A DNA stretch of 64,000 nt from positions 1,436,887-1,500,886 of the forward strand of contig CAWGON010000002.1 of assembly GCA_963824245.1 (NCBI GenBank), written 5' to 3'. The DNA comes from an uncultured Thermoleophilia bacterium (lineage in GTDB: Bacteria > Actinomycetota > Thermoleophilia > Solirubrobacterales > 70-9). Of this stretch, positions 53,823-56,259 are shown one piece after another (within the stretch, counting starts at the first letter, position 1; every line of letters begins with the position of its first letter). Under the pieces are notes generated by a model, which searched no databases, had not been told where the DNA came from, and saw only the letters and a program-made list of their open reading frames with translations. The position numbers and the translations under genes were made by a program.

Positions 53823-54913
53823 CGGTCACCTTCGCCGAGAAGCTGGCGCGGATGCCGGGCTACAAGGCCGGCGTCCCGACCGGGCAGTCCTCCGAGGAGG
53901 TCGCCTCGGGCGGGATCGCCCAGCTCGCCTCCAACGAGTCCTCGTTCCCGCCGCACCCGGCGGTGGTCGAGGCGATCCAGCGCACCGCCGCGGCGATGAA
54001 CCGCTACCCGGACCCCGACGCGACCCTGCTGCGCCAGCGCCTCGCCGAGCGCTACGAGACGGAGCCGGGCCGGGTCGCCGTCGCCAACGGCTCCTGCGAG
54101 ATCCTCCTCGCCGCCGCCGAGGCGCTCTGCGAGCCGGGGGCCGAGATCGTCTACGCCTGGCCCTCGTTCTCGATGTACCCGTACCTGCCGGCGCTGACCG
54201 GCGCCCGCGAGATCCGCGTCCCGCTCGCCCCCGGCGACGTCCACGACCTCGAGGCGATGGCCAACGAGGTGACCGCGGCGACCCAGCTGCTGATCGTCTG
54301 CAACCCGAACAACCCGACCGCGACCCACATCCCCGCGGCCGAGATCGCCGAGTTCTGCGAGCGCATCCCGCCGCACGTGACGGTGATCCTCGACGAGGCC
54401 TACATCGAGTTCCAGACCAACGACGACCCCGACGCCACCCTCGACCTGCTCGAGGACTTCCCGAACCTGGTCGTCCTGCGCACCTTCAGCAAGTGCTACG
54501 GCCTGGCCGGGCTGCGGGTCGGCTACGCGATCGGCTCCGCCGGCTTCCGCGCCGCGGTCGACGCGGTGCGCCAGCCGTTCAGCGTCAACGCCCTCGCGCA
54601 GGCGGCCGGGGCGGAGGCGATCGGCCACCAGGACGACGTCCTGCGCCGGGTCGAGAGCACCGTCGCCGAGCGGCTGCGGGTGCAGGAGGGCCTGGCCGAG
54701 CTCGGGCTGGAGACCTCCGAGTCGCAGGCCAACTTCTCCTGGGTCGATCTCGGCGACGCCGACGAGGGCGAGGTGATCGCCGGCCTCGCCGAGCGGCTGA
54801 TCGCCGTCCGCGCCGGAACCCCGCTCGGCGACCCCGGTCACATCCGCGTCACCTACGGCACTCCCGAGGAGAACGGCCGCTTCCTCGGCGTCCTGTCGGA
54901 ATTACTCGACTAA
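53819..54913 (+). CDS. hisC: Histidinol-phosphate/aromatic aminotransferase
   Basis: LASNESSFPP, NRYPDP, NPNNPT and RTFSKCYGLAGLRVGY (PLP lysine). The ATGA overlap links it to aroH. Confidence 0.85.
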   Translation: MTVTFAEKLARMPGYKAGVPTGQSSEEVASGGIAQLASNESSFPPHPAVVEAIQRTAAAMNRYPDPDATLLRQRLAERYETEPGRVAVANGSCEILLAAAEALCEPGAEIVYAWPSFSMYPYLPALTGAREIRVPLAPGDVHDLEAMANEVTAATQLLIVCNPNNPTATHIPAAEIAEFCERIPPHVTVILDEAYIEFQTNDDPDATLDLLEDFPNLVVLRTFSKCYGLAGLRVGYAIGSAGFRAAVDAVRQPFSVNALAQAAGAEAIGHQDDVLRRVESTVAERLRVQEGLAELGLETSESQANFSWVDLGDADEGEVIAGLAERLIAVRAGTPLGDPGHIRVTYGTPEENGRFLGVLSELLD

Positions 54914-54944
54914 TCGCCGGCAGCGTGGTACAAACAAGCGCAAG

Positions 54945-55034
54945 GTGAAGACGAAACGCACATCCGCGAACGGCCCCCGCGCGCTCCGCGCCGCCGTCGC
55001 CCCTGCGTATCTCACCTATTGGCGATTTAGCTAG
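54945..55034 (+). CDS. Candidate 29-codon leader peptide rich in aromatic residues at its 3' end
   Basis: Translation from the GTG gives MKTKRTSANGPRALRAAVAPAYLTYWRFS*. It has Tyr, Tyr, Trp and Phe in the last 8 codons and is followed by GC-rich pairing segments, upstream of DAHP synthase. Confidence 0.35.
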   Translation: MKTKRTSANGPRALRAAVAPAYLTYWRFS

Positions 55035-55156
55035 GCGTCCGGCCTGGCGGCGTTCCGCCGCGTGAGAAGACTCTTTTGGCCCGGGCGCCGAACCTCGTTT
55101 TCGTGGTCGTCGGCGCGCGCTGACGGTCAGCACCCAGGAAGTACGATTTCAGCGGC

Positions 55157-56259
55157 ATGGAGAAAGGCTCAGACAGAATGCACATCGGGATGGGGGGCGC
55201 CAAGAGAGACCAGGTCAGGGACCAGCGGATCGCCAAAGTGGTCGAGCTGTCCCCGCCGGAAAGACTGCTCGAGGAGCTCCCGCTCGGCTCCGAGCGGGCG
55301 CAGGCGGTCGTCAAAGGAAGGGAAGAAGTCGTCGAGGTCCTGCACGGGCGCGATCAGCGGCTGATGGTCGTGGTCGGGCCGTGCAGCGTGCACGACCCGA
55401 AAGCGGCGCTGGAGTACGCGACCAGGCTCAGCGCCCTGGCGAAGCAGATCGAGGACGAGGTGCTGATCGTGATGCGCGTCTACTTCGAGAAGCCGCGGAC
55501 GACGACCGGCTGGAAGGGACTGATCAACGACCCGCACCTGGACGGCTCCGGCGACGTCAACGCCGGCCTGCGGATCGCCCGCGAGCTGCTGCTGAAGGTG
55601 GTCGGGATGGGGCTGCCGGTCGGCTGCGAGTTCCTCGACCCGATCATCCCCGCAGTACATCTCGGACACGGTCGCCTGGGGCGCGATCGGGGCGCGGACG
55701 ACCGAGAGCCAGACCCACCGCCAGCTCGGCTCCGGCCTCTCGATGCCGATCGGCTTCAAGAACCGCACCGACGGCAACATCCAGGTGGCGGTCGACGCGG
55801 TCCGGGCGGCCGCGGCTCCGCACGCCTTCGCCGGCATCGACGACGCCGGCCAGCCGGCGATCCTGCACACGACCGGCAACCCCGACTGCCACATCATCCT
55901 CCGCGGCGGCCACGGCCAGCCGAACTACCACGTGCCCGAGGTCGAGGACGCGCTGGTCACGCTCGGCGTCGCCGGGCTGCCGGAGCGCCTGGTCATCGAC
56001 GCCTCCCACGACAACAGCGCCAAGGACCCCGAAAAGCAGTTCTTCGCGGCCGGCGAAATCGCCGACCAGATCGCCGACGGCAACAAGGCGATCGTCGGGG
56101 TGATGCTGGAGTCGTTCCTCAAGGAGGGCCGCCAGGACCTGCGTCCCGGGCGAGGACCTGGTCTACGGGCAGTCGGTGACCGACCCCTGCATCGACTGGG
56201 AGGACACGGTCACCGCGCTGGAGCGGTTCGCCTCGGCGGTCGAGGCGCGGCGCACTTGA
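55157..56259 (+). CDS. aroG: 3-deoxy-7-phosphoheptulonate (DAHP) synthase, class I; two frame breaks (near 55660 and 56140); start may be 55178 or 55190
   Basis: [53 protein letters not shown] and DASHDNS. Confidence 0.85.

Follow-up and report, generated by a model that had tools for sequence, protein, structure and literature searches.

In a 64,000-nucleotide stretch of DNA from an uncultured Thermoleophilia bacterium (hereafter the window; coordinates count from its first letter and all features described lie on its + strand), the spacer between hisC and aroG holds a short open reading frame (ORF) at 54945-55034 that probably encodes a regulatory leader peptide. Comparison with related genomes shows that this ORF, its tail of aromatic codons, its invariant end and an RNA helix beginning in its stop codon, here called P1, belong to one conserved module that stands before genes for 3-deoxy-D-arabino-heptulosonate 7-phosphate (DAHP) synthase only. 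On these comparative grounds we propose, with a probability of about 75%, that the ORF acts in cis as a leader, sensing charged tRNA-Tyr, tRNA-Trp and tRNA-Phe and tuning the expression of aroG-tyrA-aroA. The shikimate pathway begins with DAHP synthase, whose control in high-GC soil Actinobacteria beyond the model genera is, to our knowledge, essentially unknown.

A probable aromatic leader ORF and its conservation

The leader runs for 29 codons from a GTG at 54945 to a TAG at 55032-55034 and reads (M)KTKRTSANGPRALRAAVAPAYLTYWRFS in translation (peptide MKTKRTSANGPRALRAAVAPAYLTYWRFS); homologous small ORFs (sORFs) occur in relatives. The surrounding spacer extends over 243 nt between the hisC stop codon (54911-54913) and an ATG at 55157, and its GC content is 0.62-0.69 vs 0.72-0.79 in the flanks. 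Four of the last eight leader codons are aromatic (TAT at 55008 and 55017, TGG at 55020 and TTT at 55026). An earlier account made from the letters of the window (the sequence-only reading) had described both this AT-richer spacer and a GTG-started ORF with such a cluster, and coordinates, base composition and codons bear it out. The end of the ORF comprises two parts: a putative sensing tract, TAT-CTC-ACC-TAT-TGG (Y L T Y W; 55008-55022), which is variable and aromatic-rich and was delimited by enrichment across the family, and an invariant end, CGA-TTT-AGC-TAG (R F S stop; 55023-55034), delimited by nucleotide-level conservation across the order Solirubrobacterales.

Searching 40 related genomes with the N-terminus of the DAHP synthase yielded 30 protein-anchored loci, 26 of which carry an in-frame sORF with an aromatic-rich tract and the ending (W)RF[S/N/T/I]-TAG, with GGCG... 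directly after it. A model built on sequence alone, R1, was run on 401 genomes of the class Thermoleophilia and matched 72, of which 71 belong to Solirubrobacterales, where about 79 genomes were sampled (~90%). Each matching genome has exactly one match, and the other orders of the class gave none except one marginal case. Additionally, a scan for the invariant 18-mer with one genome per species found matches in at least 120 species; among those listed, virtually all are metagenome-assembled genomes (MAGs) of Solirubrobacterales, Solirubrobacteraceae, Thermoleophilaceae or Conexibacteraceae. The sORF and its Tyr/Trp/Phe cluster are thus conserved in relatives, the point on which the sequence-only reading had let its idea stand or fall. 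More than 190 sequenced examples of the element are available. At every locus with sufficient downstream sequence the next gene encodes a DAHP synthase, of the I-alpha or the I-beta type, and an I-beta gene following the leader is often itself followed by an I-alpha gene; the upstream genes differ. Two individual loci may be mentioned here. L075 has a typical leader and an I-beta DAHP synthase in a MAG labelled Chlamydiae, probably a mis-binned or mislabelled contig, and L148 matches the 18-mer without P1 or a downstream DAHP synthase and looks like a chance match.

The aromatic enrichment is specific to one reading frame. In frame 0, the eight codons preceding codon -4 encode Phe, Trp or Tyr in 32-34% of cases (33.6% among 185 distinct leaders), vs 1.8% and 5.5% in the other two frames of the same tract; the remainder of the leader has 2.7%, and DAHP synthase proteins have 3.7%. 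Aromatic frequency reaches 41-61% at codons -5 to -8 and lies below 10% beyond codon -14, and the last 12 residues include on average 4.65 aromatic ones. The tail codons are also rare ones, as had been supposed from the window. TAT makes up 50% of Tyr codons in the tails and 2.3% in the DAHP synthase genes of related loci; TTT represents 22% of tail Phe codons, and 100% of those at the fixed position, vs 3.4% in those genes; and CGA is the Arg codon in 100% of cases at its fixed position vs 9.2%. Conservation in frame, frame-specific aromatic enrichment and a position before DAHP synthase genes only all support the interpretation of this ORF as a leader peptide gene.

The end of the ORF is conserved to the letter, CGATTTA..TAGGC being kept in 26/26 protein-anchored loci and in 44/44 true hits found with the model. 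The adjacent codons vary: codon -4 is TGG in 65 cases, CCG in 5, TGC in 1 and TCG in 1, and the last sense codon may be AGC, AGT, ACC, ACG, ACT, ACA, ATC or AAC, with only its A fixed. A +1 or -1 frameshift at CGA-UUU-A was considered and rejected, the alternative frames not being conserved. Leaders are 21-44 codons long, mostly 28-32 (mode 29-31), start with ATG or GTG, and have insertions and deletions that preserve the frame. Their N-terminal halves are unrelated between subfamilies and partly conserved within the genus (..TSA..G..AAVAP). This genus-level conservation and the conserved C-terminal residues would also suit a micropeptide that ends in the aromatic sequence ...WRFS and acts in trans, for instance as a modulator of DAHP synthase or as a signal. 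We hold such a product to be extremely improbable, since subfamilies share no N-terminal half, conservation is at the level of codons rather than residues, and rare codons argue for slow decoding and not for efficient peptide production.

Helix P1 and a proposed switch set by ribosome position

Helix P1 comprises 11 bp and spans 55034-55089. Its 5' arm, GGCGTCCGGCC (55034-55044), pairs with the 3' arm, GGCCCGGGCGCC (55078-55089), with C55082 bulged, and the helix encloses a hairpin, P2, and a weak third hairpin. P1 begins at the G of the TAG stop codon, with at least 5 contiguous pairs, mostly 7-11, in 147 of 148 loci. In 38 distinct arm pairs, 91.8% of cells are paired vs 33-50% with the partner slid, and double changes occur in 5 of 8 pairs, a covariation score reached by 0 of 500 shuffles; these pairing statistics are to be read with the caveat that the 3' arm was located by its own complementarity. 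In L185, for example, TAGGCA is matched by ...GGGUGCC, a GGCA/UGCC compensation. The pairing put forward in the sequence-only reading is therefore a conserved helix with compensatory changes, although its 3' arm had been placed one base off, at about 55077-55088.

The inner hairpin P2, GCGGCG-TTC-CGCCGC, was read from the sequence at 55047-55061 (arms 55047-55052 and 55056-55061), where it had been noted before. Within the genus GCGGC/GCCGC is kept, with one double change (GCGAC/GUCGC in L035). Between subfamilies the interior of P1 differs, with two hairpins in some, different hairpins in others and a C-rich loop without structure elsewhere. A small hairpin UGGC/GCUA around GAUUUA was rejected, as natural variants break it. 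In long-type I-beta loci (L041, L047, L050, L054, L055 and others), a hairpin within P1 has the conserved loop CGUGAGCGG, which co-occurs with CUCACG 65-90 nt downstream in 19 of 28 loci, vs 2 of 99 loci that lack the loop; the two motifs are a candidate pseudoknot or alternative pairing limited to that long I-beta subfamily.

The nucleotide invariance of the module raises the question of whether the sORF is incidental and the block serves instead as a DNA operator for a regulator of the aromatic pathway, or as a structured RNA, riboswitch-like or bound by a protein, with P1 as the closing helix of an aptamer. The invariant GCGAUUUA..UAGGCG does stand beside a covarying helix that encloses further hairpins, and an upstream 9-mer and a TACGAT box, both described below, are nucleotide-fixed as well. 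Such an explanation is nevertheless very unlikely in our view. The interior of P1 is not conserved between subfamilies; frame, start codon and frame-specific aromatic enrichment are conserved, with frame-preserving leader indels; and Rfam covariance models run over 54914-55177 gave no match, even at E up to 10.

The proposed mechanism for the leader peptide depends on where a translating ribosome stands relative to P1, and assumes the usual leading edge at +11 to +16. A ribosome waiting at Tyr, Trp or Phe in the last ~10 codons would stop short of P1 and leave it folded. When UGG occupies the A site, its leading edge would lie ~2 nt before P1, which would remain intact; when UUU does, it would cover no more than the first 3-4 nt of the helix. 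A ribosome with UAG in the A site, by contrast, would have to open ~8 of the 11 P1 pairs, because P1 starts at the stop-codon G. Ribosome position would in this way define two RNA states, P1 closed when the ribosome is paused in the tract and P1 open when it is at the stop, and such a geometry would explain the constant one-base overlap of stop codon and helix. The rare, wobble-read codons UAU, UUU and CGA would render the pause more sensitive to tRNA charging. The sign of the response can be suggested only weakly: folded P1 (starved cells) may favour read-through into aroG or its translation, and opened P1 (replete cells) may lower it. Candidate outputs are Rho-dependent or non-canonical termination in the spacer, or occlusion, in which the vacated tail would cover the ribosome-binding region of aroG. 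Basal aroG expression would come from a second promoter, probably constitutive and containing TACGAT, and the leader would act only on transcripts arriving from upstream.

Two related schemes give the invariant end a larger role. In one of them, CGA-UUU-Axx-UAG and the stop-codon helix would constitute a programmed slow-decoding or slow-termination device in a terminator-less attenuator, with ribosome occupancy deciding the fate of the mRNA. Occupancy might, for instance, expose or hide an RNase or Rho entry site, or hold P1 open, without classical competing hairpins, and Tyr, Trp and Phe supply would be integrated at fixed distances from the helix. We regard this version as doubtful, if conceivable. 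In the other, which we consider quite unlikely, the nascent peptide or termination itself is arrested: the R-F-x-UAG end, with its fixed CGA and UUU codons, would stall the ribosome at or just before the stop, hold P1 open and in this way, instead of by a pause at hungry codons, set aroG expression, and the stall might need a free aromatic amino acid, as TnaC needs Trp. The order-wide invariance of CGA-TTT-Axx-TAG beside varying codons speaks for arrest, as do a stop that is always TAG and always shares one base with P1, and the failure to find a classical terminator/antiterminator. However, synonymous positions are conserved too, beyond what a peptide motif needs, and only the R and F residues are invariant. 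The variable yet strongly aromatic tract with its rare codons fits the sensing of hungry codons, and known arrest sensors turn genes on with their ligand, which is the reverse of what a biosynthetic gene calls for, unless P1 acts positively.

The output step, candidate promoters and the target gene

Several results weigh against the leader-peptide reading, and they concern the output step, the start of the leader and the existence of a second promoter. No terminator U tract follows P1: at the family loci, T in the next 12 nt is at background (mode 2/12). Nothing conserved downstream pairs with the 3' arm of P1 (mean z -0.09 in the family; about -0.85 in the genus). An anti-P1 helix between mid-leader and AGCUAGGCG is likewise not conserved (mean z -0.15), and is convincing in a few loci only, such as L005. 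With the ribosome fixed at W, F or stop, the predicted equilibrium accessibility of the aroG Shine-Dalgarno (SD) sequence changes negligibly (0.53 vs 0.50). The sequence-only reading had itself conceded that a clear U-tract terminator was missing, which was justified. Its mutually exclusive pairings fared less well. The segments GCGCCGA (55086-55092) and TCGGCGC (55110-55116) are present in the window; the pairing is not kept in the two closest relatives, L002 and L003, and a classical terminator/antiterminator logic finds neither a U tract nor a conserved partner for the 3' arm of P1.

Without a U-tract terminator, the output is probably not classical intrinsic termination, and Rho-dependent or otherwise non-canonical termination in the spacer is a reasonable guess in a high-GC actinobacterium. 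A terminator scan of the window found one weak site vs 0.4 expected. Between P1 and TACGAT lies a further hairpin, P4, GGTCGTC-(10 nt)-GACGGTC (55105-55128; arms 55105-55111 and 55122-55128), which is kept in the two closest genomes as GGCCGTC/GACGGCC (L002) and GGCCGC/GCGGCC (L003), the changes being one U-A to C-G and two G-U transitions; no U tract follows it in the window. Folding of the whole spacer across loci is not more stable than that of shuffled sequences, and the folding check proposed in the sequence-only reading, done over 54914-55200, gave the same answer (z +1.06). As single-sequence features are not above chance, significance rests entirely on conservation in relatives.

Occlusion of the SD by the vacated tail is seen in other subfamilies, not in the clade of the window. 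Across the family, tails are complementary to the pre-SD region beyond dinucleotide-shuffled tails (mean z -0.71, p ~1e-6), with z < -2 in 19% of loci. Examples are the duplexes of CCUAUUUCUACUUUUGGCGAUU with AUCGCCGAUCAGUAGAAAGAAGG in L118 and of CGCCUGG-C-GAUUU with AGAUCCCAGGCG in L050, and a cognate 7-mer complement of the tail is found in 10% of loci vs 2% of non-cognate pairs. Two further points against the reading arise here: the complementarity is absent from the clade of the window (z +0.4 to +1.0; 0 of 15 CTATTGG-type loci), and the family-wide signal is not stronger than with the SD regions of other genes, a control that is confounded by GC content. To judge from these comparisons, the expression platform seems to differ between subfamilies.

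How the leader is transcribed and translated presents the next difficulty. It has no SD: the duplex with the anti-SD amounts to -1.8 kcal/mol vs -8.0 kcal/mol at DAHP synthase starts. A consensus scan of the single sequence for sigma-70-type promoters found none. What precedes the leader, 10 nt before its GTG, is a conserved 9-mer, TGGTACAAA (54926-54934; consensus TG[C/G/A]TA[C/G]AA[A/C]); 107 of 146 distinct loci have it, 7-15 nt ahead of a start codon in frame. Its positions T1, G2, T4, A5, A7 and A8 are invariant in the genus alignment A2. The 9-mer resembles an extended -10 and may be the promoter of a near-leaderless transcript, or else a site for translation or for a regulator. It is not a canonical -10, because its final base, the sixth of the hexamer, is never T (A 59, C 44, G 4, T 0; n=107). 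A canonical TANNNT stands 8-11 nt before the leader ATG in the L028-type subfamily only. Both reservations of the sequence-only reading, that the peptide has no good SD and no -10, are thus well founded, and both count against the proposal. In L103 the 9-mer lies within the near-palindrome GCTACAAAGCTTGTAG.

An independent proximal promoter of aroG, downstream of the leader, is likely on comparative evidence, and would also tell against control by the leader. TACGAT (55142-55147), its probable -10, is identical in 28 of 28 genus sequences (alignment A2). In the family as a whole, 62-71% of loci have a TANNNT upstream of the DAHP synthase start at a distance of 24-34 nt (mode 28-30), vs 1.1% of coding-sequence windows, with only A and T at the second and sixth positions (A2 and T6) fixed. 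We also considered the hexamer as a complement of GAUUU(A) and rejected this, as only ~20% of hexamers could pair, near chance; with about one in five pairable, a -10 element is preferred over RNA complementarity. The inferred proximal transcription start site is at ~55154-55156, which would give a 5' untranslated region of 22-24 nt beginning just before the SD, GGAGAAAGG. The caution that TACGAT might be an independent promoter was therefore apt. The sequence-only reading had placed TACGAT 9 nt upstream of the ATG at 55157; that distance is right, but 55157 is probably not the start of aroG.

Furthermore, two congeners, L007 and L012, have neither the leader ORF nor P1 and retain aroG and the TACGAT block. 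Loss of the leader with aroG kept implies that the element is dispensable and that it may control only part of aroG expression, which again weakens the proposal. At the deletion junction of these two genomes, upstream TGCTAC is joined to ..CCTAG.., followed by the GGCAGCGAGC..CCAG.AAGTACGAT block. One might then suppose that the module exerts no control over aroG, P1 (with or without P4) ending the aroH-hisC transcript, TACGAT driving aroG and the sORF being a small protein gene or a relic. The two congeners favour this, as do the genus invariance of TACGAT and the fixed-distance TANNNT before about two-thirds of DAHP synthase starts. We nonetheless judge it quite improbable. The module accompanies two types of DAHP synthase and varied upstream genes; about one-third of loci lack TANNNT, so that transcription from upstream is needed there; and a tract of aromatic codons before the first aromatic-pathway gene would be unexpected in a mere terminator, which moreover has no U tract.

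The gene order in the window is aroH-hisC-leader-aroG-tyrA-aroA, followed by cmk and der. Family matches identify the upstream neighbours as an AroH-type chorismate mutase (TIGR01796) and a histidinol-phosphate-type aminotransferase (TIGR01141, 292 bits; cut-off 277), and the downstream ones as an aroFGH-type (I-alpha) DAHP synthase, a prephenate dehydrogenase and a 5-enolpyruvylshikimate 3-phosphate (EPSP) synthase, in agreement with the aroG-tyrA-aroA operon first read from the window. The start of aroG is probably the ATG at 55178 rather than that at 55157. Most relatives have TTG or GTG in place of the ATG at 55157, and non-synonymous changes affect the next 7 codons; the SD GGAGAAAGG (55159-55167) lies before 55178, and TGGAGAAAGG...ATG is kept in the genus (SD and start together, 55159-55180). 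From there the I-alpha gene extends to 56259, with a Pfam DAHP_synth_1 match split over two frames. Alignment to the intact gene of the closest relative, L002 (TIGR00034 aroFGH, 499.6 bits; 93% identical to the window gene), shows that the window gene is split over three frames by two single-base insertions, at ~55652 in a C run (CCCC) and at ~56141. As the window genome is a 2-contig MAG assembly, 78% complete, these are most likely assembly errors of the long-read homopolymer type and not signs of a pseudogene. In the same genome several genes for chorismate-binding enzymes (L196-L201) are likewise frame-split, a further sign of assembly indel errors, and no Trp-rich leader was seen upstream of them.

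DAHP synthases of both types open with ATGATGATCG.. or a close variant. These near-identical first codons suggest, by sequence comparison, that one enzyme type has replaced the other and that the regulatory region and the first codons of the I-beta gene were retained when I-alpha became the first gene. Across L001-L150, I-beta starts read ATGATGATCGT(G/C)ATG and I-alpha starts ATGATGATCGGGATG or variants. I-alpha enzymes have an N-terminal extension of ~12 residues, and in L053, L087 and L136 the remnant of a short ORF separates the leader from the I-alpha gene.

Known attenuators and the place of this family

The closest known analogue is AroR of Corynebacterium, a likeness that is functional and is set by the way AroR is described in a later summary. 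According to that summary, the C. glutamicum AroR leader (Phe-Tyr-Phe) lies upstream of aroF, and stalling at these codons raises transcription of the operon (PMC11802643, summarising Neshat et al. 2014). As there described, AroR shares with the present element a short ORF with clustered aromatic codons directly before an actinobacterial DAHP synthase gene (PMC11802643). The comparison, by description only, also brings out differences: the Thermoleophilia leader has an unrelated Y/F/W tract followed by the invariant (W)RFx and uses all three aromatics, and, set against AroR as summarised, the Solirubrobacterales element has a codon-invariant ORF end, a helix starting in the stop codon and no U-tract terminator that we could find.

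The classical leaders of Enterobacteria (trpL, pheL, pheM and hisL) are likewise rich in codons for the end product, with rare or sensitive codons among them, and a ribosome terminating at their stop codon is positioned to cover the helix arm that follows. In contrast to these, the Solirubrobacterales element is missing the G+C hairpin with U tract and the conserved 3:4 pairing, its leader is SD-less, and a probable second promoter lies between attenuator and gene. Nearer in phylogeny are the leaderless polycysteine sORF attenuators of mycobacteria (Ms5788A), whose sensing tract, at the 3' end of the sORF, base-pairs with the SD of the following gene (10.1101/834739). Here too an actinobacterial SD-less sORF is the first cistron, carries its sensing codons at the 3' end and has no intrinsic terminator (10.1101/834739), and in several subfamilies of our family (L118, L063, L042, L050) the tail is complementary to the pre-SD region. 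The tail of the window clade, however, does not pair with the aroG SD region, and the mycobacterial element has no counterpart of the universal local helix abutting the stop codon. Arrest peptides such as TnaC and SpeFL resemble the present leader in their conserved extreme C-terminal residues and in a stop codon that falls within the conserved module. Those peptides respond to a free ligand and act through Rho to turn on catabolic or induced genes, whereas the present leader precedes a biosynthetic gene, keeps only R and F constant and is conserved at the level of nucleotides.

The leader-peptide kind of control is already known; the Solirubrobacterales element itself is undescribed and turned up neither in Rfam nor in the searchable literature. 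A full-text literature search returned no paper combining Solirubrobacterales or Thermoleophilia with leader peptides, and aro genes go unmentioned in a comparative survey of attenuators in actinobacteria from 2005 (PMC1262725). Three features, namely the invariant CGA-UUU-Axx-UAG, a helix starting in the stop codon and the absent terminator, could make the element a variant of this kind.

For the uncultured Solirubrobacterales, the element represents an order-wide, single-copy cis-regulatory family. Genome annotation gains from it, since it marks an sORF, corrects the start of aroG and marks a regulon. The family is also a natural system in which to study attenuation that lacks a U-tract terminator, in organisms with few intrinsic terminators, and its two fixed rare codons, together with the junction of stop codon and helix, provide an unusually sharp prediction that can be addressed by mutation.

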